From the IMG/VR virus record IMGVR_UViG_3300037420_000837, positions 1-64,000 of that record: a DNA stretch of 64,000 bases; one strand, written 5' to 3'. Positions 25,087 to 47,364 of this stretch are shown here, piece by piece. Position numbers and translations under genes: made by a program. The stretch comes from a virus. A model generated the notes under the pieces. That model searched no databases. It was given only the letters and a program-made list of their open reading frames with translations, and had not been told where the DNA came from. How positions within the stretch are numbered: position 1 is the stretch's first letter; each line of letters starts with the position of its first letter.

Positions 25087-25233
25087 TCTAACTTAGTCTG
25101 AGGGCCCCCCGGATAAACAAGGCTGCTAAGGTGTCCGGTGGAGACGGACTGGAGGCAGGGCGGGATTTGGATACCGTTCTGCGATGCTCCGAAGGGGAGA
25201 AAGTTGTACAGGAAAGGGGCTTCGAGGTCTGGT

Positions 25234-25303
25234 GGGGCTGTAGCTCAGCGTTAGAGCACTCGATAATAATCGAGAGGTCGCCGGTTCAATTCCGGTCAGC
25301 CCA
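25234..25303 (+). tRNA. tRNA-like gene with canonical D- and T-arms but 6-nt anticodon loop (TAATAA) and G1-A72 mismatch; possibly pseudo-tRNA or tRNA-mimic
   Basis: GGGGCTG-TA-GCTCAGCGTTAGAGC-A-CTCGA-TAATAA-TCGAG-AGGTC-GCCGGTTCAATTCCGGT-CAGCCC-A; no encoded CCA. Confidence 0.5.
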
Positions 25304-25308
25304 TTGAG

Positions 25309-25333
25309 CATCAGACGGTAGAAGCCCCCTTAC
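25309..25333 (+). repeat. 25-nt motif copy immediately after tRNA-like gene
   Basis: CATCAGACGGTAGAAGCCCCCTTAC. Confidence 0.85.
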
Positions 25334-25354
25334 TGAATCATTCGGAGGGGATTC

Positions 25355-25633
25355 ATGAAACAGTTTAGACACGAAGGCTGCAGATGCAAGCGTTACAAGC
25401 ACTGCGCAGGGTGTGGTGACCACTTCACGTTGAGCACCGCACAAGACGAGAACAAATTCTGCTCGATTCGCTGCGAAGGGAAAGCGAAGACCAATGGTGA
25501 CAAGAGGGGACATCGTCCTGTTAAAAGATTCTCATCCGCTGGTGCAAAGAAATCCGCAACTGGCCAAGCTTACGTGGGTCGCAGTGGGGGACCAAGACGA
25601 GACCGAGGAAGTTTACCTGCACAGGTACGATGA
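25355..25633 (+). CDS. small Cys-rich protein
   Basis: CRCKRYKHCAGCGDHF; GGAGG SD. Confidence 0.35.
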   Translation: MKQFRHEGCRCKRYKHCAGCGDHFTLSTAQDENKFCSIRCEGKAKTNGDKRGHRPVKRFSSAGAKKSATGQAYVGRSGGPRRDRGSLPAQVR

Positions 25634-25677
25634 GGAGTCGGGCAAACTCAAGGAGCTGATGTTCTCAGATATCAAAC

Positions 25678-26022
25678 ATGTCGTTCAAACAGGTCGTAGT
25701 TATCAATTCGGGGGTGGGGATGCGCAAGGGCAAGGTCGCGGTCCAGTCGTGCCACGCCGTAGTGGGGGCAATCCTGAACACTCCGGAGGATACTCTAAAC
25801 CGGTGGTTAGGCGAAGGAATGCCCAAGGTGACCCTCAAGGTACAGTCAGCGAAGGAGCTGATTGACCTATTTGAACAGTGTCGCGGTGCGATGCTTAATG
25901 CGTATCTGGTGAAGGACGCGGGCAAGACGCAAGTCAAGCCCGGGACGGTCACGGCGCTGGCTATCGGCCCAGCCAAGGTTGAGGACATCGACAAGATTAC
26001 GGGAAAGCTGAAGCTGTTATGA
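25678..26022 (+). CDS. peptidyl-tRNA hydrolase, PTH2 family
   Basis: MSFKQVVVINS..GKVAVQSCHA...DAGKTQV..GTVTALAIGP...ITGKLKLL matches PTH2 core pattern. Confidence 0.65.
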   Translation: MSFKQVVVINSGVGMRKGKVAVQSCHAVVGAILNTPEDTLNRWLGEGMPKVTLKVQSAKELIDLFEQCRGAMLNAYLVKDAGKTQVKPGTVTALAIGPAKVEDIDKITGKLKLL

Positions 26023-26666
26023 CGAAGAAAGAGTTGGATGGGCTGAAAGAGCTGTTGGAGGCGGAGTGGATTCATTATGACGCCACTTACAACATGCTCT
26101 GGTGGGGTGCAGAGCCGACGAAGCGCACGAAGGAAGAAATCCGGGAGCTGAAGGGTGAGGGGTATGCGAATTACTTCAACGTCCCCGGACAGGGGTACTT
26201 GTACGAGAATGATGTTCGGGTTCAGTACAAGATAACCGCGAGGCAGCATTCAGCACGGCTTGCTCCCAGTGGCGGACTTTCGCAACTCCCGGGATGTTGT
26301 GGGGTGGGAGTAGTGAATACCGTTGAGAGCGTGTTGTCGGGTATCCCCAAGAAAGTCAAGGGCCCTTTCTTGAGGTATTTTATCGAACGAAGCGCTTATG
26401 ACTTGAACATCGTAGCGGTCACTTCTCGCCAGAAGGAAGAGAAAGCTGTTATCGAGGCTTCAGGGTGCTTTGAGTTGATTGCCGTAGGGAAATCGCGGAT
26501 GGGTAGCTATCCCATCTATCTCTACAAGTACAACCAGAAAGAACACAAAGGCTTTGAAAAGCTTCAGGAGAAAGTGAACAACTCTTCTCCGAAGGAGGCT
26601 CCTAAAAGTGAGCCAGTTAGGAAGGTGGCTCCGAAGCCGCTTCTCCGGAGGAGACAAGTAGGATGA
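26019..26666 (+). CDS. hypothetical protein
   Basis: 215 aa ORF, start overlaps PTH2 stop. Confidence 0.45.
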   Translation: MTKKELDGLKELLEAEWIHYDATYNMLWWGAEPTKRTKEEIRELKGEGYANYFNVPGQGYLYENDVRVQYKITARQHSARLAPSGGLSQLPGCCGVGVVNTVESVLSGIPKKVKGPFLRYFIERSAYDLNIVAVTSRQKEEKAVIEASGCFELIAVGKSRMGSYPIYLYKYNQKEHKGFEKLQEKVNNSSPKEAPKSEPVRKVAPKPLLRRRQVG

Positions 26667-26839
26667 TTTGGGTGTTTCGTGGAGTTGGGATGTTTATGCT
26701 GGTGGCGAGTCTGTGGGTACTGACTCTGCCCCCGCATTTCATCACGAACGGGCATTTCAATTTTATTGGGATGCTGTGTGACCTGCTCGCATTGGGAGCG
26801 GTCTATCTCTGGACACGTGTGTTGTTGAACACGTGGTAA
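26663..26839 (+). CDS. small membrane protein (59 aa)
   Basis: hydrophobic; below ORF-track cutoff. Confidence 0.3.
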   Translation: MIWVFRGVGMFMLVASLWVLTLPPHFITNGHFNFIGMLCDLLALGAVYLWTRVLLNTW

Positions 26840-27040
26840 GTTTCCCGAGCCCACGACAGGGCAGGGGCTGTAGGGGCAGCTAATCCCCTAGGAGGTCTTC
26901 ACGACTCCGACATGCCAAGGGAGGTTCCTAACCAACCGATGGCTTGAGGTGAAACCTTAGCGCATCTTAGGAGGCCTATAGGAGTGTTGGAACGCTGAGA
27001 GCGTACGACTCAGTCCTGACTAAAAAAGTTCCATCACGCA

Positions 27041-27080
27041 AACGGGGCAACTGGGAGACGGTCAGCTCTGTCCCGTTTTA
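27041..27080 (+). terminator. putative rho-independent terminator
   Basis: AACGGGG...CCCCGTTTTAAAATTTTT imperfect stem plus T-runs. Confidence 0.4.
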
Positions 27081-27103
27081 AAATTTTTCGAGAAAGGGAA
27101 GCT

Positions 27104-27310
27104 ATGTGGAGGATGGTTCGGAGCCCCAAGGGGTTGATAGTCCTCGGGTTGTGTGTACTCAATGCGTGGGCGATTAACCGCGTGTTTGAGGTGGACTTCG
27201 AGTTCGACCCGGATGTGTGGTTGATATTGTTCGCCATCCTGTTTGGATTGGAGACTGTGTCTCTCTGGGGGCTCTACCATCTTCTGTTTTGGCTGTTGAG
27301 GGGTTTATGA
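27104..27310 (+). CDS. small membrane protein
   Basis: GAAAGGGAA SD then ATG; 68 aa, two TM. Confidence 0.4.
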   Translation: MWRMVRSPKGLIVLGLCVLNAWAINRVFEVDFEFDPDVWLILFAILFGLETVSLWGLYHLLFWLLRGL

Positions 27311-27720
27311 GCGAGGAAAAGAAAGAACAAGAAACACGTTATCGAGTGTTTGTCTACGGCACACTCAAGCGCGGAGGCAGGCTTCACGGGTGTATGGACA
27401 TGGAGGGGCCTAAGGGTGGCACCACGCGTTTCATCGACGAGTACACGCTCGGAGATGTCGAGATGTATAACCTTGGCTGGTACCCCGGGATTAAACAGAG
27501 AGCCGGTGGCAAGGTGCACGGCGAGCTCTACAGCGTGACTGAGGATGTACTCAAACGCTTGGATAGGGTTGAGGGAGCGCCGTTTCTCTACTCCCGCAAG
27601 GTCTTCAACGTGCCGTATAAGGGTGTGAAGATGGACATTCATACTTATGTCTTCAACGGCGAGGTCAACCCGAAGAACTTGATTGTTGATGGGGTGTGGA
27701 GGCCAGACCATGCTCGGTAA
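27307..27720 (+). CDS. gamma-glutamyl cyclotransferase (GGCT/AIG2-like)
   Basis: VFVYGTLKRG...GWYPG...GELY...LDRVEG...Y.R motifs. Confidence 0.6.
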   Translation: MSEEKKEQETRYRVFVYGTLKRGGRLHGCMDMEGPKGGTTRFIDEYTLGDVEMYNLGWYPGIKQRAGGKVHGELYSVTEDVLKRLDRVEGAPFLYSRKVFNVPYKGVKMDIHTYVFNGEVNPKNLIVDGVWRPDHAR

Positions 27721-28300
27721 AATACCGATGTGGTATTTCAAGGTGGTCAATCGTCCTTACGGGGCGCGGATGCCCAAGCGTGAGACGAAGGTGATGGACA
27801 TCGCGACAAAGTCGATTGTACCTATTCGGAGCCTCCATCAAACTCCGATTGGTTTTGTCCAGCCGCAAGGTATGGAGTCCCGCAAGAGCCACCAGCATGA
27901 ACGCCTACGGAGGCGTGGCAAAAACAAAAACATCGAGACCGGGAATCTGGGGCTGAGCGAATATCAGTTCTGGGTGGGCGTGAAAGGAGCTTCCACGCAG
28001 TTTGCGAGATGTCGAGCTTGCAATCAGGATACCTTCGGACCCAACGAGCGCAAGATGCACCACACGCTCTCTGGGCGGGAGGACCTTAGTTGTGCAGGTA
28101 AGTGCGTTATTATCTGTAACTTACTGGCCAAGGACAAGCAGTGCATCATCTGCGGGGACGGTGTGCACAAGAAGCGCTGGGGAGTCCCGATGTGTGCGCG
28201 CAAGGAGTGTGTCGAGAGCTTTATGTTTTCGCTTAGCCCGATGCCTTCGATGTGGATTCACGCGAGAGCCTTGGGGGCTCAACGAGGTTGGCAGAAATGA
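27710..28300 (+). CDS. Cys-rich protein
   Basis: several CxxC pairs (CRACNQ, CIICGDGVHKKRWGVPMCARKEC). Confidence 0.4.
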   Translation: MLGKIPMWYFKVVNRPYGARMPKRETKVMDIATKSIVPIRSLHQTPIGFVQPQGMESRKSHQHERLRRRGKNKNIETGNLGLSEYQFWVGVKGASTQFARCRACNQDTFGPNERKMHHTLSGREDLSCAGKCVIICNLLAKDKQCIICGDGVHKKRWGVPMCARKECVESFMFSLSPMPSMWIHARALGAQRGWQK

Positions 28301-28944
28301 AGAAGCATACCATTGACGGGATTTTCAAGAAGGGTCGGGGAGGGGTGGCTGCAAACGTGACAGGCACCATGCCAGCCCCGTTTCCGGGCAAATATCCCAC
28401 ACGGGTGTGCTTCAGTATCAAGGTGCACGGCAGACCCGAACGGATTGAGTACATCGGCAAGCCGAATGTGCAGATGATGTTGCGGTTCCATCGGTTTGTC
28501 GAGAGGGCGAGGTTGGATGGGTTTTTCTACTACGAGTTCGACCGCAAGAATATCGTAGCCCGGATGACGATGAGTTCTCGGGCCAGTTGCGAGAGGCTTC
28601 GGAGATACTATCATCCGTGGGCAGGGGTCTATAGCACCTACGAGGACTTCCTCAAGCCTTTCTATCGCAAGAAGGTTGGGGGAGCCACCTGCTACAGTCA
28701 ACACAAAGTCAACAAGATTTCGCAGGTCAATGAGTTCAAGGAGTGGCTGGTGAGCCAAGGCTTGGCTCCGGGGCATATCCTAACCAAGAAGCCTGCTCCG
28801 AAGAAACCGAAGACTATTGAGTGGCGCTACAACTGCGGGAATTGTGGGCATTCCTACCAGAGATTGAGTAAGCCCGAAAGTCTGGTAGTTCGTTGTAGCC
28901 TCTGTGGAGCATTCACAAGTTGGACGGAAAAGAAATCTCTATGA
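28297..28944 (+). CDS. hypothetical protein with C-terminal zinc ribbon
   Basis: CGNCGH...CSLCG at C-terminus. Confidence 0.4.
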   Translation: MKKHTIDGIFKKGRGGVAANVTGTMPAPFPGKYPTRVCFSIKVHGRPERIEYIGKPNVQMMLRFHRFVERARLDGFFYYEFDRKNIVARMTMSSRASCERLRRYYHPWAGVYSTYEDFLKPFYRKKVGGATCYSQHKVNKISQVNEFKEWLVSQGLAPGHILTKKPAPKKPKTIEWRYNCGNCGHSYQRLSKPESLVVRCSLCGAFTSWTEKKSL

Positions 28945-30455
28945 TTTGCACCGAAGAACGGAAAAAGTTTTTCACTGAGGCTGTGGGCAAGGGCTGGCGG
29001 GAGTTGAGCGAGGTTCCGGTGAACTTCCTCCCGGAGGTGCCCGAGCATGTCAAGCTGAAGTGGCTGAAGATTCTAAAGACCAGCAGGGTACCGAAGTATC
29101 CGGTGAACCCTCGACTGGTCAATCATTTTACTCTCGGGGCCGACCCCGAGTTTGTGTTGTATGACCCAACGAGCGGGTCCAGAATGGACGGGAATCGGTT
29201 GGGGCTGCGGACTGGCATGGCCTATGGGGTGGATTCCAATGGTCGTTTGCTGGAAATCAGACCCTGTCCCAGTCGGTTTGCCTTAGAGGTTCTGGCTAGC
29301 ACGCTGGTGACTCTTAGATGGTTCGCTCTGACGGTGCCTCAAGCTCTTGATTTCCAGTGGCGTTCGGGGGCATTTGTCTTGCGAGATGGTCTGGGAGGGC
29401 ACGTGCATCTGGGTAGGAAGACCGCGAACCGTAAGGTTGAAGTGGAAGCTCTGGACAGGGTGTTCCACCTATTGAACGGTTTAGGGGTGTTCCCGCAAGA
29501 TGAGTGCCAAGCACGGAGGGCAGGCGACCAGTTCAATCAGCGGTACGGACTAGACGGAGACATACGACTCCAAAAGCACGGGTATGAGTATCGGACCTTG
29601 CCAAGTTGGCTGGATTCCCCGTGGACGGCATATCTTTGCCTTGTATTGTCCAAGCTGGTCGCCCATGACCCTGCGATTTTTCACAACCTGCACAAGGGTA
29701 CGGTCTCGAAAGGGGGACAGACGAGGATTCTCAATCTGTTCCGAAAGTATGCAGGGCTGGATGACGATGCGGCGATTGCCGCGAGTGTACTGGAAAGACA
29801 TGGGTTGCCGAGCTTTCAGGGTGGCGACTTCAAGACTCGCTGGGGGTTGACCTACGCGAAGGATGCCCTGAAGGATAGGAATATCCAGATTCCGGGCAAC
29901 ATCAAGCCGAGTGCTGAGGAGATGCGGGAGCTGTTTTGTAGCTTGATGAACAATACTCCCTTGCACGCCACCATGCCTAAGGCTTACTGGCCGACACATC
30001 TGCCGAGTGGGTATCAGACGGTGTTGAGCTACACGGATACCACGAGGGTTGCGGGGCTGGGGGAAGTGCTAGCTGAGATGGTGGTCGAGTCGAAGCACGC
30101 CTTTCAATTCACGCACTCTGAGAGCATCACGGATTATTTGAGGGTGAGCTTGGATGTGGTCAAGAGCTTGCCGAAGAACTGGCGACAGCTTTGCGCGAAG
30201 GCGAGTGGCTTGCCGGAAGAGAGGTTCCGGGCCTATGACCAAGGCAAGAACGCGATTTTTATCGGGCGAGACGCGAGAACAAGCACGCACTTGAGAGCCG
30301 TGCGGAGGGCCTTGTTGAGTGAGGCTTTCCCGATTTGGAAGTTTGACGAGGTGAAGTCTGAGAGTTATTCGTGGTGGGTGGAGAAGAATACCCGCGAAAA
30401 GAAAGAGAAGCCTCGGAAGTTTGCCTCGAAGGTAATCTACGAGCGAGGCAAGTAG
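28920..30455 (+). CDS. amidoligase-like protein, paralog 2
   Basis: LGADPEFVLYD, LLEIRPCP, LGGHVHLGRK motifs shared with 23205 and 34791. Confidence 0.5.
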   Translation: MDGKEISMICTEERKKFFTEAVGKGWRELSEVPVNFLPEVPEHVKLKWLKILKTSRVPKYPVNPRLVNHFTLGADPEFVLYDPTSGSRMDGNRLGLRTGMAYGVDSNGRLLEIRPCPSRFALEVLASTLVTLRWFALTVPQALDFQWRSGAFVLRDGLGGHVHLGRKTANRKVEVEALDRVFHLLNGLGVFPQDECQARRAGDQFNQRYGLDGDIRLQKHGYEYRTLPSWLDSPWTAYLCLVLSKLVAHDPAIFHNLHKGTVSKGGQTRILNLFRKYAGLDDDAAIAASVLERHGLPSFQGGDFKTRWGLTYAKDALKDRNIQIPGNIKPSAEEMRELFCSLMNNTPLHATMPKAYWPTHLPSGYQTVLSYTDTTRVAGLGEVLAEMVVESKHAFQFTHSESITDYLRVSLDVVKSLPKNWRQLCAKASGLPEERFRAYDQGKNAIFIGRDARTSTHLRAVRRALLSEAFPIWKFDEVKSESYSWWVEKNTREKKEKPRKFASKVIYERGK

Positions 30456-30465
30456 GAGGACGAGA

Positions 30466-31497
30466 ATGTGTGGAATCGGTGGGTTTTACCGTTATGGTGA
30501 CACGCCAATAGACATTGACCAAATCAAGGCGCTGTTGTGTCAGTTGGAGCGCCGAGGCAATCACGCAACCGGGATTGCGTTGCAGGACGAGAAGGGGGAA
30601 GTGTTTGTGTGTAAGGCCCCGACTCCTGCGTGGAACTTTGCCGCAGGCAAGGAGTTTGAGGTCTTCATGACGAAGTACTTCAACGAGCGCACGAGGATTG
30701 CGCTGCTCCATACGCGGGCTGCGACTATCGGGAACCCGAATAAGAACGAAAACAATCACCCGATGTTTGCCGGGAAGGCCGCGATTGTCCACAACGGGAG
30801 TATCAACAACCACTCCTACTGGTTCAGCCAGAACAAAGACTGGGAGCGCAAGGCCGAGACAGACAGCGATGTCATTCGGGCGGTGGTGGATGAGCTAGGG
30901 ATTACTCCGGAGGCCATCAGGTATTTGAGTCGGTTCTCGGGAAGTGCGGCCATCATGGCGGTCAGTCCGGAGTATCCGGGGAAGCTGTTGGTAGGCCGGT
31001 CAGGCAAGCCTCTCACGATGGGCTGGAACGAGAAGGAGCAGATGCTCGCGTTCGCCTCTGAGAAGGAGATGCTCTACCACGCGACCAAGCCGCTCAAGGT
31101 GGCGCTGGGGTTTGTCTTTGCTGGCAATCGGAATGATTACATGTACTTCACCATCCCGGCAGACACGATGTACATCGTGGGCGAGAAGGGTAAGGAGTTC
31201 CACGATAACCTGCGGATTGCCAGCTATACCACAGGGGAGATGGTCTATCGGTGCAATGAGACTTACCACGAGACCAAGAAGCGCTTTGACCGGGAGACAC
31301 CTCCGCCCAAGCGAGAAGTAGTGACGGTCGATGAAGGGCCGTTGTATGTGAACTCCAAGCTGGACGTGGTGAGATGTCGGAATACCAAGTGCAACAACCT
31401 CATGGAGCTGGACGAGAAGCTCAAGAAGGAGCCACTCTGGGAGTTGGCTTGTGACAAGTGTGGAACCTACCTGATGGAGGAGCCGAAGAAGGCTTAG
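30466..31497 (+). CDS. class-II (Ntn) glutamine amidotransferase domain protein
   Basis: MCGIGGF N-terminal nucleophile Cys2; AGGAGGA SD. Confidence 0.65.
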   Translation: MCGIGGFYRYGDTPIDIDQIKALLCQLERRGNHATGIALQDEKGEVFVCKAPTPAWNFAAGKEFEVFMTKYFNERTRIALLHTRAATIGNPNKNENNHPMFAGKAAIVHNGSINNHSYWFSQNKDWERKAETDSDVIRAVVDELGITPEAIRYLSRFSGSAAIMAVSPEYPGKLLVGRSGKPLTMGWNEKEQMLAFASEKEMLYHATKPLKVALGFVFAGNRNDYMYFTIPADTMYIVGEKGKEFHDNLRIASYTTGEMVYRCNETYHETKKRFDRETPPPKREVVTVDEGPLYVNSKLDVVRCRNTKCNNLMELDEKLKKEPLWELACDKCGTYLMEEPKKA

Positions 31498-31761
31498 GGG
31501 ATGAAGAAGAAGCATCGTGAGAAGGGTTTCACGGCGTTCGAGTGGGTGGGGCTGCCGTGTAAGCCGGTGCCGAAAACGAAACGAGAGAAACGTGAAAAAG
31601 CAGACGATTCCCGGCAAGGGACTGGGAAAGGTGTTCACTCTGTGCCTTATCGGGAGCAGGGTAAGTAAGCATAAGAGACGCAGGAGTTTCTGTGTCAGGT
31701 GTGGGCATTGTTTCAAGTGTGGCTGGGCACACCCTCACACGGGAAGGAACGGGCACGTAGG

Positions 31762-32214
31762 ATGAAAGAGCTTGTTGAGAAGTACAAGGAACAAATCACG
31801 GCCATTCTCGGGCACAACCGATGGCGGTTGGGAAATGTAGACTACAAAGTCAACTACAGCGACAAGCTTGACCTCGGGAAGTATGCCTTGTGGGTTCGGG
31901 TGAACTCAGTTGACCCGACAGAGACCAAGGTCGCAAGCTTTGAGCTGCACCCGATGATTAACTGCTGCGGGATTTGTGTGTCTTCGAGAGCTGAAGTGCA
32001 CAAGGATTTTCAAGGTAACGGTCTCGGGACGCTTCTCAACTCTTTTCGGGTGGATGTTGCACGCTATCTCGGGTACGGAGTCCTGCTTTGCACGGACGTG
32101 TCAACCAACGAACCTCAGCGCAAGATTCTTAAAGCCAACGGGTGGAAGGACGTGTATCAGTTCTTAAACCCGCGAACGAAGAACAGGGTATTCATCTCGG
32201 TAATAAATCTATGA
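31762..32214 (+). CDS. GNAT-fold N-acetyltransferase-like protein
   Basis: VHKDFQGNGLGTLL acetyl-CoA-binding-like motif. Confidence 0.5.
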   Translation: MKELVEKYKEQITAILGHNRWRLGNVDYKVNYSDKLDLGKYALWVRVNSVDPTETKVASFELHPMINCCGICVSSRAEVHKDFQGNGLGTLLNSFRVDVARYLGYGVLLCTDVSTNEPQRKILKANGWKDVYQFLNPRTKNRVFISVINL

Positions 32215-33044
32215 TTCGACTGGTAGTCGCAAAAGGCAGCAGACCCACGGGAAACACTCTCTCAAACCTGCTGAGAACCGAACACAACCTCCAGCTCGGA
32301 GAAGCTGGGCGAGGAGTCGTGAGTTATGGAGTTCCATACGGAGGAAATCTCCCAGCCCTCAACGCAAACGCAGGACGACTGGATAAGTTGGAACAAGGCC
32401 TGCGCTTGGCATCTGCTGGGGTTAGCGTTGTTCCACATCTCGATTCTGCTGCTGCTCTCCGCCACAATGGGGTTCTCTTGGCTCGCAAGCGCAATCATGT
32501 TGGCGGTCGGGACATTATGCTGGTACTTGAGCCTGAGGACATCCCGCACCGACTCCGAGCAGGAGCCCAGTTCTTTACTCCTTATATCCGAAGCCAAGCC
32601 GAGTATCGAGTCTGGACCTACCGAGGACAACATCTGGGAACTTATCAGAAGGTCCTAGCCCATCCGGAGAGATACAAGAAAGTGGGGCGGAACTATGACA
32701 ACGGCTTTGCGTTCCAGCTTGTCCGAGAGGCGCAGATACCACGAGCGGCGGTGGAACTGGCGAGTCAAGCCGTTGAGGCTTTGGCTCTCGATTTCGGCGC
32801 GGTCGATATCTTACACGGACGGGACGGAAGGTTCTACGTGTTGGAAGTTAACACTGCACCGGGGGTCGAAGGGGAAGGCAGGCAGGTCATTCAAGCGCTT
32901 GCTCGTAAAATCGCTCGCTGGGAAGAGTTAGGGTATCCGGCTAGGAATGGAAGCCCGGAGGCTGCGGCTAAGAAGGCTGCCAAGGAGAAGAGGCCCCTAA
33001 AGGACTTAGCAGGAGAGCGGAGGACACAACTCCGGAGGTGGTGA
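32211..33044 (+). CDS. ATP-grasp ligase (RimK-like)
   Basis: GAVDILHGRDGRFYVLEVNTAPG ATP-grasp C-terminal signature; ATG overlaps upstream TGA. Confidence 0.65.
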   Translation: MIRLVVAKGSRPTGNTLSNLLRTEHNLQLGEAGRGVVSYGVPYGGNLPALNANAGRLDKLEQGLRLASAGVSVVPHLDSAAALRHNGVLLARKRNHVGGRDIMLVLEPEDIPHRLRAGAQFFTPYIRSQAEYRVWTYRGQHLGTYQKVLAHPERYKKVGRNYDNGFAFQLVREAQIPRAAVELASQAVEALALDFGAVDILHGRDGRFYVLEVNTAPGVEGEGRQVIQALARKIARWEELGYPARNGSPEAAAKKAAKEKRPLKDLAGERRTQLRRW

Positions 33045-37950: not shown

Positions 37951-38216
37951 TTGTCTACTATTTTCTCTGGGGGCTGTTACAACTTGCCTTCTGGATGACT
38001 CTTATAACCGTGGCCCCGTATTGGGTTGGGAAGTATAGCTATGCGCTAATTGCTTACCTCCAAGACGGGCGACGGAAAACCTTGAGAGAGCAGGTGGCTG
38101 ACCTCAACGCGGACAACGAGAGCATCAAGTACCTTGCGTTGTGGATGGTAGGGATGGTGTCAAGCTTTGTGCTTGGCATCCTCTTAGTTACAGCCTACTT
38201 TCTCGGAAGACCCTAA
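37947..38216 (+). CDS. small membrane protein (2-3 TM)
   Basis: 89 aa; stop TAA is inside motif copy 38213-38238. Confidence 0.4.
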   Translation: MIVYYFLWGLLQLAFWMTLITVAPYWVGKYSYALIAYLQDGRRKTLREQVADLNADNESIKYLALWMVGMVSSFVLGILLVTAYFLGRP

Positions 38217-38238
38217 GGGGGCCTTCTAAGGTCTGATG
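38213..38238 (-). repeat. 25-nt motif copy (reverse), left arm of inverted pair
   Basis: CTAAGGGGGCCTTCTAAGGTCTGATG; contains stop codon of 37947..38216. Confidence 0.85.
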
Positions 38239-38427
38239 ATTGATGCGGTGCGGGTGGGTATTGTTTAAATCTGACAAACAGGGACGTACCGGAGAGTGGA
38301 ACACACCAGTTCTTCTCTTCCTTGGCGACAACCCTGTGGCAACGTCTGCTAGGGGGCTTGACGACCCAGTGTCTGATGCCCTCCAACAAACGCATCTAGA
38401 GGAGAATATCCCTCTAGGCAACTCACT

Positions 38428-38453
38428 CATCAGACCTTAAAAGTCCCCTTTGG
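38428..38453 (+). repeat. 25-nt motif copy, right arm of inverted pair, upstream of rsr
   Basis: CATCAGACCTTAAAAGTCCCCTTTGG. Confidence 0.85.
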
Positions 38454-38459
38454 ACTCAA

Positions 38460-38487
38460 CCCCCTCTTCGGAGGGGGATTTTTATTT
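38460..38487 (+). terminator. rho-independent terminator or 5'-UTR stabilising hairpin
   Basis: CCCCCTC-TTCG-GAGGGGG then ATTTTTATTT; sits between motif copy and rsr SD. Confidence 0.55.
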
Positions 38488-38499
38488 GGAGGAGAAACT

Positions 38500-39894
38500 A
38501 TGGCGAGTATAAACAAACAAGTGCCTAGCAATCTGCCTAAGACGTACGAAGGTACGCCTGCGCAGCGGCTGGACACTGAGCAGACCTTGCAGCGGTTGGT
38601 CTTAGCCAACATGCTGTGGGAGGACCAGTTTTACATCGACGGCAAGGCGACGGCTGGGATGATTTCGGAGTTGGTTCCGAAGGTCAGCCCGAAGTTCGTG
38701 GCGGCTCTGGCGGTCTATGCCCGGGAGAAGATGAAGCTCCGGCATGTGCCCCTGTTGCTTGTGCGAGAGATGGCCCGGGCCTCGACGGAGCATAAGCTCC
38801 TCGTGGCTGACACCCTCTCGAAGGTTGTCCAACGTCCGGATGAGATGACTGAGTTTCTGGCCATCTACTGGAAGGAAAAGAAACAGCCTCTCAGTGCGCA
38901 GGTCAAGAAGGGGCTGGCGCAGGCTTTCATGAAGTTTGACGAGTTCCAGCTGAGTCGGTATGACAAGGACGGAGCGGTCAAGCTGCGGGACGTGATGTTC
39001 CTTACCCACCCCAAGCCCAAGGGCAAGTTCGAGACGGTCTACAAGAAGATTGCGGAGCGGAAGACCCAGACCGTCGACACGTGGGAGACCAACCTCAGCG
39101 CTGGCAAGGACAAGAAAGAATCCTTCGAGCGCCTGATGAGCGAGGGCAAGATGGGCGCTCTGGCCGTGCTGCGCAACCTGCGGAACATGCAGGAGGCGGG
39201 CGTGGAGCTGGACAAGATGCGCGAGGCCATCAAGACCATGAAGGTCGAGAGGGTCCTCCCGTTCCGGTTCATTGCGGCCTCACGATATGCTCCGAAGCTG
39301 GAGCCTGAGCTTGAAGAGGCGATGTTTAAGTGCCTCGGAGATGCGCCGAAGTTGAAGGGGCGCACGGCTCTGGTGATTGATACCAGCCCGAGCATGTGGA
39401 TGGCGAACATCTCCATGAAGTCTGAGATGAATCGGGCAGACGCTGCGGCGGCTCTGGCCATGCTCCTGCGGGAGATTTGCGAGAGTTGCAACATCTACAC
39501 GTTCAACCACGAGGCCAAGGCGATTCCGGCACGGCGAGGGTTTGCGCTGCGGGACGCCATCTTTCAGACCAAAGGGGATTACTCCTGCGGCGGTCTGGGC
39601 GTGCACATGGCCAACAAGGACGGCTACGACCGCATTGTCGTGCTGACGGACGGGCAGTGGCATTACTCGAACTATGAGGCCAACTCCGTAGGTACACGGC
39701 ACTCGATGGAGAACTCGGGACACGCGGGCGTCTGTCCGAAGCCCTTGACTCCACTGGCCTACATGCTCAACGTAGCGGCTTACAGGAACGGCGTAGGTTC
39801 CGGAAGCTGGGTCACCATCGACGGATGGTCTGAAGCGGTTGTGGATTACATCCGTGCGTGCGAGGAGGGCTTCGATGTTGAGGCACGTGGATGA
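38500..39894 (+). CDS. rsr: Ro60/Rsr-like protein (TROVE module plus C-terminal vWA domain)
   Basis: N-terminal TYEGTPAQRLDTEQTLQRLVLANMLWEDQFYI (TROVE-like start), helical repeat region, C-terminal vWA with MIDAS LVIDTSPSMWM and DRIVVLTDGQ; GGAGG SD. Confidence 0.6.
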   Translation: MASINKQVPSNLPKTYEGTPAQRLDTEQTLQRLVLANMLWEDQFYIDGKATAGMISELVPKVSPKFVAALAVYAREKMKLRHVPLLLVREMARASTEHKLLVADTLSKVVQRPDEMTEFLAIYWKEKKQPLSAQVKKGLAQAFMKFDEFQLSRYDKDGAVKLRDVMFLTHPKPKGKFETVYKKIAERKTQTVDTWETNLSAGKDKKESFERLMSEGKMGALAVLRNLRNMQEAGVELDKMREAIKTMKVERVLPFRFIAASRYAPKLEPELEEAMFKCLGDAPKLKGRTALVIDTSPSMWMANISMKSEMNRADAAAALAMLLREICESCNIYTFNHEAKAIPARRGFALRDAIFQTKGDYSCGGLGVHMANKDGYDRIVVLTDGQWHYSNYEANSVGTRHSMENSGHAGVCPKPLTPLAYMLNVAAYRNGVGSGSWVTIDGWSEAVVDYIRACEEGFDVEARG

Positions 39895-40411
39895 GATTGC
39901 TCCCGAGGCAATCAAGTACATGAACTCCCGCATGGGGACCTTCGAGTTCCGGGCCAAGACGCGGTACATGAAGGCGTACTGTGCGCTGGTAAGTATCGGC
40001 CTGAAGAGTGAGCATGTGCTCTTGGACATCGGCGCAGGCAGTTGTCAGTTCGACCACTTCATGCGTACGAGGTTCCGTTGGATGGGGAGATACCTTCCGG
40101 TGGATGCAACGCTGGACGGTACGAACCTGAACAACTGGAAGCCCAAGGCGAAAGTGGACTTCGTGGTTTGTCTGGAGACCTTGGAGCACTTGAAGGTTCC
40201 CGACAGAATGCTCAGGCACATCCGCAGCGCGGCGAAGTACGGGGCAGTAGTGACCGTGCCGAATCCGGACGTAGTTGATGTGTTGAGGTGTGACCCTACA
40301 CACGTGAGTGTAGTGGACCCGGGGATGCTGTTACGTCACGGCTTTGAGGTCACGCCGGTCAATTGCTTCGGCAAGAAGGATGACACCTTGCTTGGAGTGC
40401 TGAGCAGATAG
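39875..40411 (+). CDS. SAM-dependent methyltransferase (class I)
   Basis: motif I VLLDIGAGSCQ, later VDFVVCLETLEHL; start overlaps rsr stop. Confidence 0.55.
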   Translation: MLRHVDEIAPEAIKYMNSRMGTFEFRAKTRYMKAYCALVSIGLKSEHVLLDIGAGSCQFDHFMRTRFRWMGRYLPVDATLDGTNLNNWKPKAKVDFVVCLETLEHLKVPDRMLRHIRSAAKYGAVVTVPNPDVVDVLRCDPTHVSVVDPGMLLRHGFEVTPVNCFGKKDDTLLGVLSR

Positions 40412-40417
40412 GTTTTC

Positions 40418-40487
40418 GCAGGGATGGTGTAGAGAACGGTTACTTCTGACTCTTAAACCCGTACCGTTTTCGTTTGTTCCTCCCTGC
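40418..40487 (+). ncRNA. structured RNA element, family copy C1 (candidate Y-RNA-like), 7 nt after methyltransferase stop
   Basis: closing GCAGGGA/TCCCTGC; conserved 5' TGGTGTAGAGAACGGTTACTTC and 3' CGTTTGTTCC; inner AACGGT/ACCGTT stem. Confidence 0.5.
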
Positions 40488-40496
40488 AAAAGATTC

Positions 40497-40625
40497 GGGA
40501 GTGGTGTAGTAGACAGTTACTTCCCTTATAAGGACGATGGCGTTGGTTCGAGTCCAACCAGAGACGAGAGTCTCTGTAGCTCAGTGGTAGAGCACGACCG
40601 TTACTGTTTGCGATTGTTCCCTCCC
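40497..40625 (+). ncRNA. structured RNA element, family copy C2 with tRNA T-arm-like and D-arm-like modules (candidate YrlA-like)
   Basis: closing GGGAG/CTCCC; 5' GTGGTGTAGTAGACAGTTACTTC, 3' GTTTGCGATTGTTCC; T-arm GTTGG-TTCGAGT-CCAAC (40542-40558); canonical D-arm TAGCTCAGTGGTAGAGC (40577-40593); hairpins CCTTATAAGG and AGAGAC-GAGA-GTCTCT. Confidence 0.55.
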
Positions 40626-40704
40626 GAAACACTGTAACAAAAACCCACCCGAGGGCGTCTTATAGACGCCCGCTCCGGGGAGTCCTTTCCCGGAATGGAG
40701 CATA

Positions 40705-41007
40705 ATGCAGTACAAATCCTACGACTACGGCTCTGCCGTACGTGTCTTCTGGTACGACTCCGCCGCCATCCAAGGATGGCAATACTCAAAGAATGTTGGG
40801 CAGGTAGGACGGATTACCAGCTTGGGATATGTAGTTTCTTCCAAGCCGGAATGTCTGACCCTGTCGACAAGTCTGGATACCACGGGGGCATCTATTGACC
40901 CGCTCAGTATCCCGTGGGGCGCGATTGTTAAGTGTGAGAGTCTCCCCGACCTCGACTTGATGAGCAAGCCGGTATCGAAGCCCCGTAAGAAAGACTCCTC
41001 TGGATAG
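40705..41007 (+). CDS. hypothetical protein
   Basis: GGAG SD then ATG; 100 aa; frame-1 ORF ending just inside the protein-like open frame of the nuclease gene. Confidence 0.4.
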   Translation: MQYKSYDYGSAVRVFWYDSAAIQGWQYSKNVGQVGRITSLGYVVSSKPECLTLSTSLDTTGASIDPLSIPWGAIVKCESLPDLDLMSKPVSKPRKKDSSG

Positions 41008-41197: not shown

Positions 41198-41797
41198 TTG
41201 CAAGATGGCAATTCGTATACAGCTGAAGAAGTCCACAAGTTCTGCGAAGAATGTAAGTACGCCTTCAAACGAAAACGAGACCAAGCAGCCGACATCGGCT
41301 CAGCTGCCCATGAAGTTATCGAAGGAAGAGTCAACACCGCAATTGCTGGAGGTGAACTGCGAGTTGATACTTCCGAGATACACGGAGACAGTGGGCTTGC
41401 AAATGAAGACCTACGCCTTGTTGAGAACTGTGTCAATGCGGCCACCGAGTGGTTACTCAGCCACAATGTTGTACCAATTGTTGCTGAAAGAAGGATTTAC
41501 TCCCGTCGCTGGCACTTCTCCGGGACTGCTGACCTTATTGCAAGAGTAGATGACAAACTTGCTCTTGTTGATTGGAAATCTTCTAAGGGGCTCTATCCCG
41601 AGTATGCTCTCCAGACTGCTGCGTACGTTAAAGCTTATCAAGAAGAGACTGGCGAGAAAATACAGACCCGTTGGCTTATTCGTCTAGGGAAAGAGGACGG
41701 GGCCTTTGAAGCGAAGCAACTCACCAACCTAAGCGGCGACTGGAAAGCCTTCAAGGCCGCGCTAACCCTGCACAATTGGCAAAAATATTCCAAATGA
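41198..41797 (+). CDS. PD-(D/E)xK nuclease (RecB/Cas4/YqaJ-like exonuclease); annotated from TTG 41198 but protein-like frame is open back to 40964
   Basis: GTADLIARVDD...LVDWKSSKG...YALQTAAYVKAY (D...D/ExK...Y); upstream in-frame segment YNGQVILRF..PSVTTVLKVISKGDALTQWA has no ATG/GTG/TTG. Confidence 0.55.
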   Translation: MQDGNSYTAEEVHKFCEECKYAFKRKRDQAADIGSAAHEVIEGRVNTAIAGGELRVDTSEIHGDSGLANEDLRLVENCVNAATEWLLSHNVVPIVAERRIYSRRWHFSGTADLIARVDDKLALVDWKSSKGLYPEYALQTAAYVKAYQEETGEKIQTRWLIRLGKEDGAFEAKQLTNLSGDWKAFKAALTLHNWQKYSK

Positions 41798-42322: not shown

Positions 42323-43210
42323 TTGGGCGAAAATCCCTACCTGACTAGCCACACATTGACGGGGGCCCTCGCTCCTCCACTCCTCCGCCCCCGTCAACCC
42401 TTTCCTAAATTGGCACTTACAATTAAATCCACTCAAAATCTAGTTACTCCGGGGAACTTTCATTGGAAGGTTCTAGTGTATGGTCTTCCCGGAACCGGCA
42501 AGACAAAATGGGCTGCCGGTGCCCCGAACCCGGGAATCATTGCGTGTGAGACCGGCCATGGAAAGGGACTGCTGACGTTGGCAGACCAGACCATCGAGTT
42601 CGTAGAACCCACGACCTTGCAGGACTTTGACGAGGTCGCCTCGGGCAAGGTCTTCAAGGACAAAGAGACCTTGGTGTTTGATAGTTTGTCGTACTTCGTC
42701 AAGACGGTTGTCAAAGACGAAGCTCTCAAGATGCCTAGGAAGTTCGGGGAAAGCGCCAAGCGTAGAGCTGGGGTGCCGGAACTGGACGACTACGGAGTCA
42801 TGGGGGAACTCACCCGGAAGTATGTGGAGAAATTGCTACTGCTTCCTAAGAATGTAGTGGTTCTCGCAACAGAGAAGTACAGCGGGGGCAACGAGGACAA
42901 TCCAGAGATTGTGATTGGCCCCGACCTTCCCGGAGCGATGTTTTTAGGCTCGACTGCTATGTTCGATGCGGTTCTCCGACTCCGCACTAGGCCGAAGTTG
43001 AGAGACCCCAAGGATGCGAAGAGTAAGTATACCGAGAGGTATTTTCTCACGCAGCCCGATGGGGCAGGCACGATTGCGAAATGTAGGAGCACCCTGAATG
43101 GAAAAGCGATTCTGGATAAGGAAGAGGTTTTCGACCTTGAAACGGGAGCTGGAAGTTTTCAGGCGTTGTATGACAAACTTCTGGCGGCTTACAGCCAGAA
43201 CAAGGGGTGA
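42323..43210 (+). CDS. RecA-superfamily ATPase (AAA_24/Sak4-like), start uncertain
   Basis: KVLVYGLPGTGKT Walker A, ETGHGKG; next to nuclease gene as in phage recombination modules; no ATG near P-loop. Confidence 0.45.
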   Translation: MGENPYLTSHTLTGALAPPLLRPRQPFPKLALTIKSTQNLVTPGNFHWKVLVYGLPGTGKTKWAAGAPNPGIIACETGHGKGLLTLADQTIEFVEPTTLQDFDEVASGKVFKDKETLVFDSLSYFVKTVVKDEALKMPRKFGESAKRRAGVPELDDYGVMGELTRKYVEKLLLLPKNVVVLATEKYSGGNEDNPEIVIGPDLPGAMFLGSTAMFDAVLRLRTRPKLRDPKDAKSKYTERYFLTQPDGAGTIAKCRSTLNGKAILDKEEVFDLETGAGSFQALYDKLLAAYSQNKG

Positions 43211-44907: not shown

Positions 44908-47364
44908 TTGCCCAAGACAGTTAAAGACACCCCCGGTTGTGAAGGTTGTCCAATGGCTCGGAAGTTTCCGGGCAATACCTTTGTTGCGCCTACGGTGCCC
45001 GTCAAGAGTGAGCTGATTGTGATTGCAGAGGCTCCGGGCGAAGAGGAGCAGCTCCAAGGGGCTCCGCTAGTGGGGGGCTCCGGACGAACCTTCGATGCGC
45101 TGGCCAAGAAGGCTGGCCTCAAACGCGAGGAGATGACGGTTGTTAACTGTATCAACTGTCGCCCTCCGAACAACATCTTTCCTACAGACCCAGATGCCAA
45201 GAGCTACATCTCCAAGGCCGAGGCTGACCAAGCAGTTAGCCAGTGCCTCAAGAACCACGTCGAGCCAGTTCTCAAAGGGCGGAAGTACAAGAAAGCTATC
45301 CTCCTCGGAGACAAAGCGCTTCGTTATATTGCTGGGAAGGAGGGCATCGGCACGTGGAGGGGGAGTCCTCTTCCCATCCCATCTCTTGGCCCCAAGCCCT
45401 TGGCTGTCCCCACGCTACACCCAGCTTACTTGATGCGTGAGCAGGAGATGATTCCTGTGGTCATCAATGACCTTGGGAAGAGTCTAGACGTAACTCCAGA
45501 AAGGTACAACCTCTACCCTACGGTAGAGGATGTGGCGGCTTTCACAGCGCAGGAGTTCACCTTTGACATTGAGACTACCATTCCGAAATCTCGTGACGAA
45601 GCCCCGATTGTACTTCTTGTTGGGCTTACCGCGAAGGATTGTGAAGGAATCGTGGTTCCTTTTCGCGGTGCTTATGTACGCGAGCTGCGTCGTATCTTTG
45701 GACAAGCTAAAGCTGTCACAGGTCACAATTGTATCCAGTTCGACCTGCCAATACTGCGACACTATGGAATCTTCCCTGACGACGACTGTGTCGTCTGGGA
45801 TACGATGTTGCTGCACCACCTGCGGTTCCCCAATCTCCCTCACGACTTGGAGTTCGTCGGGAGTCAATTCTGTCACAAGCCCGCATGGAAACATGACAAG
45901 GTCTCTTTTGAAACATATTGTGCTAGGGACGTTGACGTCACCCATCAGGCTGCTAAGGAACTGCGTCAGCTCATCCGCGAAGAAGGGCTTGAGAGACTCT
46001 ACCATCGTGTCCAAGTACCTCTAGCGAAGATATGTAAGTTGATGGAGGAGACGGGCTTCGCTATCAATGGAAGCCGGATTGAAAAGGTTCGAGAAGCGCT
46101 GCTGACTGAACAACAGGCCCTAGAGCAGAAGCTTCCCGTGCAGCTCAGGAGCTACGACAAGGAAGTCAAGAGGCGTGTGCTTGCACCGCCGGGAACGCTT
46201 GGTAAGAGTGGAAAGCCCGTCAAGTACACTACTGAACCTGCCGTTGAGCGTGTGACTCCTTGGCGTAGCCCTGAGATGAAGAAGAAGTTTCTCTACGGGC
46301 ACGAGGAACCTTGGCAGCTGGGTCTGGATGAGATTCTGGATGTCAAGACCGGACGAGTTACCACCGGCAAGATTGCCCTAGACAAACTCTTCCGCAAGTC
46401 CAAGAACTTTGCCATCCCCGCCCTCAAGAGGCTCAACGCAGTTGATGAACTTCTCACTACCTTCTGTTCCGAAGAGATGGCGACGACCGTCTCAAAGATG
46501 CACCCCCACTTCAATGTCCACGGCACTGCATCTGGACGCCTCTCGTCATCTGACCCTAATCTCCAGAACATTCCTGAATCCGCACGGTTCATCTATGTTC
46601 CTTCACGTCCGGGTTGGAAGATTATTGATGTCGACTACTCTCAAATCGAGAATCGCATCACGGCTTTTCTGGCTGGCGACAAGGAGCGGCTTAGAAGGTT
46701 TGAGGAGAATCCAGACTTTTCTGAGCACCGTTATGCGGCTTCCTTGTTTCTTGGAATACCGTACGAAGAAGTCGAGAAGGATAACGACAAAGACGCTCCG
46801 TACGGAAAGGCCAAGCGTATCGTTCACGGTACAAACTATGGCATGGGAGCCCTGAAGATTTCTAAGCTCTATGACATGGACTTGAAGGACACCAAGAACC
46901 TGCAGGCCACTTGGAAGGGAGCCATTCGGGAGACCATCAAATGGGGCGAGAGGACAGCACAGAGAGCCTACGACGACGGCGTGTTAGTGACCCCCTTCGG
47001 ACGCAAGAGGTGGTTCTATACGAATTCGTACTACACGGAATCGCTCTCGTTTATTCCACAATCCACCGCTGCCGACATTATCTATCGCGCTATGCTTGCG
47101 CTTATGCACGAGCGTATCGGGTGGCCCAAAGAGCGGCTCGCAGGGATTGTGAATGTTGTCGAGCCCTTGCCGGAGCCCGCGAGGTTACTGATTCAGGTGC
47201 ACGACTCGTTGGTTTTCGAGTGTCCGAATGAGATGGTGGACAAGGTTTGTCTGACCATCAAGACGGTCATGGAGCAGCCGTGGCCGGAGTTGAAAGGCTT
47301 CAAGATTCCGATTGGTATCAAGGTCGGAGAATCTTGGGGCGAAGCGGAGAAGTATGTCGTCTAG
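44908..47364 (+). CDS. DNA polymerase, family A, with N-terminal family-4 UDG-like domain and 3'-5' exonuclease domain
   Basis: UDG-like: CEGC, IVIAEAPGEEE, LVGGSGRTFD, NCINCRPPNN; exo: FTFDIETT, GHNCIQFDLPIL, YCARDV; pol motifs A DYSQIENR, B KRIVHGTNYGMG, C QVHDSLVFE; TTG start. Confidence 0.85.
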   Translation: MPKTVKDTPGCEGCPMARKFPGNTFVAPTVPVKSELIVIAEAPGEEEQLQGAPLVGGSGRTFDALAKKAGLKREEMTVVNCINCRPPNNIFPTDPDAKSYISKAEADQAVSQCLKNHVEPVLKGRKYKKAILLGDKALRYIAGKEGIGTWRGSPLPIPSLGPKPLAVPTLHPAYLMREQEMIPVVINDLGKSLDVTPERYNLYPTVEDVAAFTAQEFTFDIETTIPKSRDEAPIVLLVGLTAKDCEGIVVPFRGAYVRELRRIFGQAKAVTGHNCIQFDLPILRHYGIFPDDDCVVWDTMLLHHLRFPNLPHDLEFVGSQFCHKPAWKHDKVSFETYCARDVDVTHQAAKELRQLIREEGLERLYHRVQVPLAKICKLMEETGFAINGSRIEKVREALLTEQQALEQKLPVQLRSYDKEVKRRVLAPPGTLGKSGKPVKYTTEPAVERVTPWRSPEMKKKFLYGHEEPWQLGLDEILDVKTGRVTTGKIALDKLFRKSKNFAIPALKRLNAVDELLTTFCSEEMATTVSKMHPHFNVHGTASGRLSSSDPNLQNIPESARFIYVPSRPGWKIIDVDYSQIENRITAFLAGDKERLRRFEENPDFSEHRYAASLFLGIPYEEVEKDNDKDAPYGKAKRIVHGTNYGMGALKISKLYDMDLKDTKNLQATWKGAIRETIKWGERTAQRAYDDGVLVTPFGRKRWFYTNSYYTESLSFIPQSTAADIIYRAMLALMHERIGWPKERLAGIVNVVEPLPEPARLLIQVHDSLVFECPNEMVDKVCLTIKTVMEQPWPELKGFKIPIGIKVGESWGEAEKYVV

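Follow-up and report, generated by a model that had tools for sequence, protein, structure and literature searches.

Phages that carry a Ro60 (Rsr) gene together with Y RNAs have been described before. Chen et al. (2014) found YrlA-like RNAs beside Ro60 genes in 254 bacteria and 22 phages (PMC4201824), and Ro60 homologues with Y RNA-like RNAs had earlier been reported from mycobacteriophages, CcrColossus, and Bacillus phage G (according to PMC12135203). In 2025, the Ro60 protein of Thermus phage phiLo was solved with two phage Y RNAs, and ternary complexes with the host polynucleotide phosphorylase (PNPase) were demonstrated (PMC12135203). Here, we analyzed a 64,000-nt stretch of viral DNA (positions 1 to 64,000 of IMG/VR record IMGVR_UViG_3300037420_000837; hereafter, the window), which contains an rsr gene at 38500-39894 and four structured RNAs on the same strand. 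We interpret this locus as a phage-encoded Ro60 ribonucleoprotein (RNP) module with cognate Y RNAs, an interpretation to which we assign a probability of roughly 0.8. An earlier description made from the letters alone (the sequence-only reading) had suggested that such a phage module would be an undescribed RNA-based system. That suggestion does not stand, given the reports above, the existence of a Ro60 protein family (PHROG 850), the 77 GenBank phage records that encode a Ro60 homologue, and the same RNA module in Xanthomonas phages, CcrColossus, and a Microcystis phage. Instead, the phages with their own Ro60-Y RNA particle gain an environmental member.

A bacterial Y RNA family relevant to this locus is YrlA. 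As defined by Chen et al., these RNAs carry GNCGAAN0-1G near the 5' end and YUAY at the opening of the V loop; the T stem-loop and the D stem-loop are nearly invariant, with an acceptor-like hairpin between them and the V hairpin before them (PMC4201824). They are encoded on the strand of the Ro60 gene and no more than 4 kb from it, where nearly all of the best matches were found, and a species can have multiple Y RNAs, which are processed from one precursor (PMC4201824). YrlA is a substrate of tRNA enzymes; orthologues of the second RNA, YrlB, were found by the same authors only within Salmonella (PMC4201824). In Salmonella, rsr and the Y RNAs are part of an operon that is induced by damaged tRNAs (PMC7790460). 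The corresponding features of the window are the following.

38500-39894, + strand: Ro60/Rsr orthologue, 464 aa, with a TROVE HEAT-repeat ring and a C-terminal vWA domain whose MIDAS motif (metal ion-dependent adhesion site), DTSPS, is at aa 294-298
39875-40411, + strand: small class I S-adenosylmethionine (SAM)-dependent methyltransferase, 178 aa, whose start overlaps the 3' end of rsr by 20 nt
15334-15413, + strand: Y RNA E1, a short hairpin of 80 nt; dispersed paralogue 23.1 kb upstream of rsr
23031-23154, + strand: Y RNA E2, with the basal module, two hairpins, and the T-arm GGGGGTTCAAATCCCCC, and no D-arm; dispersed paralogue 15.3 kb upstream of rsr
40418-40487, + strand: Y RNA E3, a short hairpin (possibly YrlB-like) of 70 nt, with the basal module and a pyrimidine-rich apical loop
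40494-40628, + strand: Y RNA E4, YrlA type, with the basal module, V-like hairpin, T-arm, acceptor-like hairpin, and D-arm

The open reading frame (ORF) at 38500-39894 encodes a Ro60/Rsr orthologue, in agreement with the sequence-only reading, which had noted a TROVE-like N terminus and a vWA domain with a MIDAS motif. We make this identification because the protein matched Pfam TROVE (PF05731; 59.7 bits against a cutoff of 23, E = 4e-16) and PHROG 850 ("RNA-binding protein"; E = 9e-42), because the sole solved proteins matched by phmmer were Ro60 of Thermus phage phiLo (PDB codes 9KOP and 9L5Y; E = 5.8e-21, residues 13-457), because the best 13 Foldseek matches in the PDB were all Ro60 proteins (phiLo, Xenopus, Deinococcus, and human), and because the MIDAS motif D294-T-S-P-S298 was invariant across 25 homologues. 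The Pfam profile vWA_Ro60 alone scored below its cutoff (20.5 versus 27.7 bits). The alignment with phiLo Ro60 is full length and takes in the vWA domain, and an AlphaFold (AF2) model built from 25 homologues (mean predicted local distance difference test score of 81) contains helical repeats and an alternating strand/helix fold at aa 285-441, the vWA region. More than 8000 database proteins matched the window protein at E ≤ 1e-20. The nearest homologues (61-62% identity) sit on phage-like contigs of 44-68 kb, and chromosomal Ro60 proteins in Terriglobales/Acidobacteriota metagenome-assembled genomes (MAGs) are 54-58% identical to it. These chromosomal copies give a hint of the host phylum, although a weak one, as they come from a scan with short peptide patterns that were themselves drawn from this Ro60 subfamily.

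Two of the four RNAs directly follow the rsr-methyltransferase pair. The methyltransferase ORF stops at 40411, E3 begins 7 nt later, and E3 and E4 start 524 and 600 nt, respectively, past the rsr stop codon on the same strand. The tandem elements that had been placed at 40418-40487 and 40497-40625 were recovered within 3 nt, the closing stem of E4 extending 3 nt further at each side. In a repeat search, the 5' strand of E3 and E4, GGTGTAGNAGACNGNTACTTC, recurred at 15343 and 23036, which defines E1 and E2 (the latter belongs to repeat family D4). Paralogues elsewhere in the phage had been claimed and do exist, but the elements number four rather than five: a regular-expression scan of the window, models R1, R2, and R3 (see below), and Rfam at E ≤ 0.05 gave no fifth element. 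The count of five probably includes a tRNA gene at 25234-25304 (+ strand), beyond which the window has no other tRNA-like sequence. This gene scored 50.7 bits in Rfam and has a 6-nt anticodon loop (UAAUAA) and a G1-A72 mismatch, ARAGORN names no anticodon for it, and it lacks a Y-RNA stem. Upstream and downstream of the gene lie GGTCTGGTG and CATCAGAC, respectively, halves of a repeated motif described below that can pair with each other.

All four elements are on the rsr strand and in intergenic gaps, and their folding z-scores against shuffled controls ranged from -2.9 to -5.1 (minimum free energy z of -5.1 for E1 and -3.5 for E3). The longest possible form of the ORF after E1 (15395-15967, + strand), which starts from a TTG at 15395, would overlap this RNA; a likelier start, which leaves E1 intergenic, is an ATG in the same frame at 15446, with AAAGGGAAAC before it. 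The heads of the RNAs are of three types: a short hairpin (E1 and E3), a T-arm only (E2), and a permuted tRNA-like domain, which was found in E4 and in none of the others. E1 and E3 fold as long hairpins, and the apical loop of E3 reads as 16 pyrimidines in 24 positions; there is no sequence model of YrlB with which to compare it. The T-arm-only type also occurs in CcrColossus and in an acidobacterial locus (L004:19-130). E4 consists of a small V-like hairpin (CCUUAUAAGG), a T-arm (GTTGG-TTCGAGT-CCAAC; in RNA, GUUGG-UUCGAGU-CCAAC), a 7-bp acceptor-like hairpin (CAGAGAC-GAGA-GUCUCUG), and a D-arm (TAGCTCAGTGGTAGAGC; in RNA, GUAGCUCAGUGGUAGAGC), in that order. When 4227 Rfam families were scanned against both strands of the 64-kb window, YrlA (RF02553) was the sole non-tRNA match (40535-40596; 35.5 bits, E = 5e-4), and it covered model positions 24-84, which correspond to the T, acceptor-like, and D arms. 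The proposal that E4 holds a T-arm and a D-arm inside a long closing stem, as in YrlA, is therefore borne out, both by this match and by a model of related RNAs that aligned to E4 from end to end (R3, below).

To place these RNAs, we fetched 13 acidobacterial Ro60 loci, together with Ro60 loci of two IMG/VR viral contigs and of two groups of phage-like metagenome contigs. A strict, exact pattern for the 5' motif yielded nothing in the first loci fetched, and a looser scan and covariance models were used instead. The bacterial loci had YrlA matches of 31-51 bits upstream of rsr, below the Rfam threshold, and the flanks of these elements are the same sequences as those of the window elements. 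Scanning the fetched loci for the motif plus a stem returned one to six elements per locus, all on the rsr strand. From the outside in, the basal module that they share with all four window RNAs begins with a closing stem of 6-8 bp whose sequence is free. A bulged U and two G-C pairs, all invariant, come next and are followed by an asymmetric internal loop with UG(U/A)A on the 5' side and GNNU(G/A)UU on the 3' side, a conserved G-C pair, a second stem of about 8-9 bp ending in RCGG/CCGU, and a single-stranded UUACUUC. In the internal loop, bases are conserved in addition to the pairing, which points to a protein-binding site.

The basal module is supported by covariation. We placed an artificial linker between the 5' part and the 3' part of each of 31 elements (alignment A2) and counted pairs for a structure that we specified. 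In this alignment, 90% of the cells were paired, compared to 41-56% when the partners were slid by 1-3 columns; both-sided changes were seen in 14 of the 17 pairs; and the covariation score was 0.61, compared to 0.10-0.19 in the slid controls. E2 forms all 17 module pairs. For the YrlA-type members, RNAalifold on 14 sequences predicted both basal stems together with the T-arm, the acceptor-like hairpin, and the D-arm, with compensatory changes in 21 of 32 pairs and in all three arms. The check for covariation that had been proposed for these elements was thus positive for the module and the arms alike.

Models that contained no window sequence also recognized the four RNAs. Searched against the window, model R2, built from the basal module of 27 nonwindow sequences, gave 50.2 bits for E3 (E = 7e-12) and 30.4 bits for E1 (E = 3e-6), with the next match at 13.9 bits. 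For model R3, we used 13 full-length RNAs of the YrlA type that flank homologous Ro60 genes in other genomes. This model matched E4 from end to end (92.9 bits, E = 3e-20), as well as E3 (46.9 bits), E2 (37.0 bits, E = 1e-6), and E1 (26.0 bits, E = 5e-4), with no further match at E ≤ 0.1 in the 64-kb window. The long inserts of E2 and E4 are more than a GAAA-linked "mini-Y" model can span; it gave fragments of 7-8 bits there and was applied to the short elements only. Across genomes, the module is linked to Ro60: one to eight copies, always on the rsr strand, were found beside the gene in the 13 acidobacterial loci, in four viral or phage-like contigs, where the copies lie within about 2 kb of rsr, and in three cultured phages.

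The cultured phages are CcrColossus (Caulobacter), 10KY502B and its relatives (Xanthomonas), and Mvi-JY20 (Microcystis), whose Ro60 proteins belong to the same subfamily (40-43% identity). On these phages, R3 found the same basal module at 27-96 bits overall: three tandem copies upstream of rsr in 10KY502B (85-96 bits), eight tandem copies directly upstream of rsr in CcrColossus (30-78 bits; L027:2760-3957), and one or two copies downstream of rsr in Mvi-JY20. The T- and D-arm sequences of one CcrColossus copy are identical to those of E4. The complete 43-kb genome of 10KY502B has no copy away from rsr. The copies of the cultured phages stand in tandem beside rsr, whereas the window has one pair after the rsr and methyltransferase genes and single copies in other intergenic gaps, 15.3 and 23.1 kb upstream of rsr, a modest departure from these relatives. 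Two of the cultured-phage elements contain annotated tRNAs: a GenBank "tRNA-Thr" (record positions 20624-20691) lies inside the 10KY502B element L031 20618-20753 (95.5 bits with the Y-RNA model), and a "tRNA-Gln" (L027:3173-3240) lies inside the CcrColossus element L027 3167-3335 (77.9 bits). Both are probably misannotated Y RNAs.

Comparison with described particles places the window locus as follows. The phiLo protein (9KOP, 9L5Y), also a phage Ro60 with a HEAT-repeat ring and a vWA domain, is its best match in both sequence and fold (template modeling score of 0.69), and two phage Y-like RNAs adjoin the phiLo gene and form complexes resembling the RYPER machine (see below) with host PNPase in vitro. 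However, the identity is about 23%, the phiLo Yrls lie upstream and were chosen by a CGAA in an internal bulge, and the phiLo operon has no methyltransferase, while the window RNAs are downstream or distant, lack GNCGAA, and include a tRNA-like domain. The Rsr-YrlA/YrlB locus of Salmonella Typhimurium resembles the E3-E4 arrangement in having a long, permuted-tRNA Y RNA (V, T, acceptor-like, D) and a shorter hairpin in tandem beside rsr on the same strand. Unlike the Salmonella RNA, E4 has a basal stem that lacks GNCGAAN0-1G and the middle helix and has an additional outer module; in addition, no rtcBA repair genes are present, and the locus is in a phage rather than a chromosome. E3 and E4 fit the YrlA picture of Chen et al. 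except for the absent GNCGAA and the differing basal stem. Deinococcus radiodurans Rsr-Yrn1/Yrn2-PNPase (RYPER), from which the mechanistic model derives and in which a Y RNA tethers Ro60 to PNPase, likewise has a Ro60 ring (fold match 2NVO) and several Y RNAs near rsr, one of them tRNA-like, but differs in protein sequence (about 17% identity in structural alignment), in the arm order of Yrn1, and in being chromosomal and stress induced. Vertebrate Ro60 shares the vWA/MIDAS ring (fold matches 1YVP and 9NEN; 15-17% identity), and its Y RNA is held by a conserved bulged helix of the 5' and 3' ends below a variable apical part that serves other partners; there, however, the binding-site sequence is GGUCCGA and no tRNA-like domain is present.

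Several observations weigh against reading the four elements as Y RNAs of this Ro60. The YrlA match of E4 falls short of the family's gathering score (35.5 versus 69 bits) and covers the tRNA-like core only, so the Infernal comparison that had been suggested gave the sole non-tRNA family match but not one above threshold. An exact-motif search for GNCGAAN0-1G, the proposed Rsr contact, found it in 0 of the 4 elements; the aligned positions read GUCGGA (E1), GACGGA (E2), AACGGU (E3), and GACAGU (E4). E3 and E4 lie on the same strand as rsr and within 4 kb of it, but E1 and E2, though on that strand, are 23 and 15 kb away, beyond the neighborhood used by Chen et al. Part of the A2 statistics was selected as well, as the scan demanded at least five closing pairs and fixed motif bases, which affects stem 1 and some of the invariance. 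Finally, the window yielded neither a PNPase gene nor another partner, and recruitment of PNPase is proposed by analogy only.

The first two points apply to the whole clade. Relatives beside bacterial and phage Ro60 genes score 31-56 bits with the YrlA model, below the threshold throughout, and the clade consensus at the position of GNCGAA is RCGG, followed directly by UUAC. Alignment of a bacterial relative to the Rfam model showed that the middle helix of YrlA is missing from the clade, in which a further conserved module (bulged U, GG:CC, UUCCC) instead lies outside the ends of the model; this explains the low Rfam scores. With regard to selection, stem 2 was not a scan criterion, and 83% of its cells were paired, with compensatory changes in 7 of 9 pairs. 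A clade of Y RNAs beside Ro60 proteins of about 455 aa, in Acidobacteriota and in Xanthomonas, Caulobacter, and Microcystis phages, thus escapes the Rfam YrlA threshold. Its putative docking module is well defined, covaries, and is unlike the published GNCGAA motif, and its RNAs form arrays with diverse heads, some of them annotated as tRNAs in GenBank. The general picture of Ro60 biology is unchanged by this, but better search models and candidates for binding studies are gained.

The strongest competing explanation is that the RNAs act mainly on the host, either by titrating or reprogramming host Rsr or as tRNA-shaped decoys for tRNA-targeting enzymes or defense nucleases. Cross-binding is plausible, as RNAs with this basal module also flank the chromosomal Ro60 genes of Terriglobales/Acidobacteriota, whose products are 54-58% identical to the phage protein; two phage RNAs, E1 and E2, are not linked to rsr; and both the use of YrlA as a substrate by tRNA enzymes (PMC4201824) and the response of the Salmonella operon to damaged tRNAs (PMC7790460) would suit such a role. 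Yet the phage keeps a full-length Ro60 with an intact MIDAS beside two of the RNAs, for which a cognate RNP is the simplest account, and a decoy sits poorly with the elements themselves, in which no anticodon-like or acceptor features were found and of which ARAGORN calls neither E2 nor E4 a tRNA (its only call in the window is 25234-25304). On balance, we regard a mainly host-directed role as improbable.

Less probable still is that the elements are cis-acting mRNA structures, such as processing sites, stabilizers, or terminators, that resemble Y RNAs but have no functional link to Ro60. All four do lie in intergenic gaps of one long rightward block, with E3 and E4 at the end of an operon and no promoter-like site before the elements, but known Y RNAs are also cut from longer transcripts (PMC4201824). 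Moreover, in unrelated genomes (chromosomes and Xanthomonas, Caulobacter, and Microcystis phages) the module occurs only beside Ro60; the complete 43-kb phage genome has it only beside rsr, it is absent from phage loci that lack Ro60, and the conserved internal-loop sequence points to a bound protein. Like this explanation, a derivation of E4 and E2 from decayed or rearranged tRNA genes, with their similar flanks as residual duplication, fits the cross-genome linkage and the covariation poorly and is scarcely credible: E4 does have canonical T- and D-arms and a weak, partial tRNA-model match (RF00005, 40505-40560; E2 has none), and similar phage elements in GenBank are annotated tRNA-Thr or tRNA-Gln, but that match (20.5 bits) is below the gathering score of 29, no ARAGORN tRNA is called at E4, the order T-arm, hairpin, D-arm is permuted exactly as in YrlA, decay would not conserve this order across 14 sequences of different genomes, each arm showing compensatory changes, and the flanking module is also present in E1 and E3, which have no tRNA-like part.

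Under the preferred interpretation, a phage Ro60 RNP with cognate Y RNAs, we propose that the phage would express a Ro60 ring from among its replication and recombination genes, together with four Y RNAs from the same strand. E3 and E4 would be cut from the rsr-methyltransferase transcript at its 3' end, and E1 and E2 from intergenic gaps of other rightward transcripts. The basal module would dock on Ro60 in the manner of the bulged helix in Y RNAs of animals and bacteria, and the differing apical heads would presumably recruit different partners. The likeliest partner would be host PNPase, giving a RYPER-like machine that might degrade or trim structured RNA during infection, to the benefit of the phage. 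Such assemblies have been shown in D. radiodurans, in Salmonella, and (in vitro) for phiLo, which is why we propose this machine here; we judge the PNPase-tether step to be about half as probable as the module itself.

A broader idea, and a doubtful one, is that Ro60 of this subfamily uses a library of Y RNAs, with one docking module and interchangeable heads, one to eight per genome, and that the library is split in this phage. If so, the various heads (short loop, T-arm only, permuted tRNA, normal-order tRNA, and large insert) would send the ring protein to different partners or substrates. Placement of E1 and E2 in other transcription units could then yield different Ro60 RNPs at different times of infection, capture of host Rsr would be possible, and the co-transcribed methyltransferase might modify the RNAs. 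Regarding the range of heads, an element on a phage-like contig whose Ro60 is 62% identical (L017:5740-5877) has the same basal module below a head in normal tRNA order (D-arm, anticodon-like arm, T-arm), and large inserts that are not tRNA-like form the heads at L017:4306-4470, L021:7765-7926, and L010:1145-1310. We also observed that four Terriglobales/Acidobacteriota MAG chromosomes (L004, L005, L006, and L007) have three to six Y RNAs upstream of rsr and, from about 1600 nt past rsr, long downstream arrays in which tRNA genes number from about 10 to over 25 (e.g., L005:4641-7308). A survey of long tRNA arrays does not mention Ro60 (PMC8421152). The Y-RNA array, Ro60, and tRNA array may together be a mobile unit.

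The methyltransferase appears to be a neighbor rather than a component of the module. Its ORF matched Methyltransf_23 (35.3 bits; cutoff, 27) and Methyltransf_12 (27 bits), with no close solved structure and no NCBIfam family. Because the two ORFs overlap by 20 nt and no terminator was found between them, rsr and the methyltransferase gene are likely co-transcribed, as had been suggested, but the methyltransferase is not a conserved partner. The family is rare (21 homologues in 5.8 billion proteins), none of the fetched Ro60 loci contained a homologue, and the three contexts of homologues that we examined were phage contigs without Ro60 and, by model R3, without Y RNAs. We therefore rejected a functional partnership of the methyltransferase with Ro60 or the Y RNAs as unsupported and treat it as a neighboring gene.

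Several sequence signals surround rsr. A motif of about 21 nt, CATCAGAC-N3-5-AAG(C/T)CCCC(T/C)TAGG, has 15 copies in the window, 7 on the + strand and 8 on the - strand. These copies and a hairpin near rsr are positioned as follows.

38428-38448, + strand: copy of the repeated motif, 52 nt 5' of the rsr start codon, at the start coordinate of the region singled out in the sequence-only reading
11180, 15092, 25309, 38428, 43578, 47873, and 56149, + strand: copies of the repeated motif
1518, 10893, 23168, 38217, 43500, 47722, 56474, and 62513, - strand: copies of the repeated motif
38460-38487, + strand: terminator-like GC hairpin with a T-run (CCCCCTCTTCGGAGGGGG ATTTTTATTT) from a terminator scan, directly before the rsr ribosome-binding site

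Several motif copies lie 10-40 nt 5' of a ribosome-binding site and ATG, often with a short GC hairpin after them, and some form inverted pairs 58-270 nt apart (10893/11180, 38217/38428, 43500/43578, and 47722/47873). The repeat CATCAGAC-N3-5-AAGCCCCC may be a phage-specific promoter or, via pairing of inverted copies, an RNA processing site. A sigma-70 promoter scan of 38200-40800 was negative, and the hairpin at 38460-38487 could end an upstream transcript or attenuate rsr. Two further hairpins (+ strand) lie between E4 and the next ORF, which starts at 40705: GGGCGUC-UUAUA-GACGCCC at 40653-40671 and GCUCCGGGGAGUCCUUUCCCGGAAUGGAGC at 40672-40701. No U-run follows either hairpin; the pair might mark where the rsr-methyltransferase-Y RNA transcript is processed or has its 3' end.

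The window is a phage genome, as it encodes a portal protein, a large terminase, a DNA polymerase, and a primase. The rsr locus belongs to a long rightward gene block, from about 11.3 to 50.9 kb, and lies just upstream of the genes for recombination and replication.

1539-3524, - strand: portal protein
8867-10378, - strand: large terminase
41198-41797: exonuclease
42323-43210: Sak4-like annealing protein
44908-47364, + strand: family A DNA polymerase

A DNA-level search of GenBank for a related phage returned only short matches to the Ro60 gene (65-80% identity), which indicates a phage without a close cultured relative; it is apparently an environmental, uncultured phage. Elsewhere in the rightward block, a cluster at 23205-33044 (+ strand) comprises a COOH-NH2 ligase-like protein (23205-24545; PHROG 3815), a class II glutamine amidotransferase-like protein (30466-31497), and a RimK/ATP-grasp-like protein (32142-33044). 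E2 lies directly 5' of the ligase-like gene, and COOH-NH2 ligase genes also occur near rsr in contigs L017 and L021. A giant ORF at 52292-60007 (- strand; 2570 aa) had as its sole match PHROG 9854, a family of unknown function, over the C-terminal 700 residues. A virion RNA polymerase, which might have explained the repeated motif, was considered but found no support in this match; the ORF may encode a tail protein or an enzyme associated with the virion.

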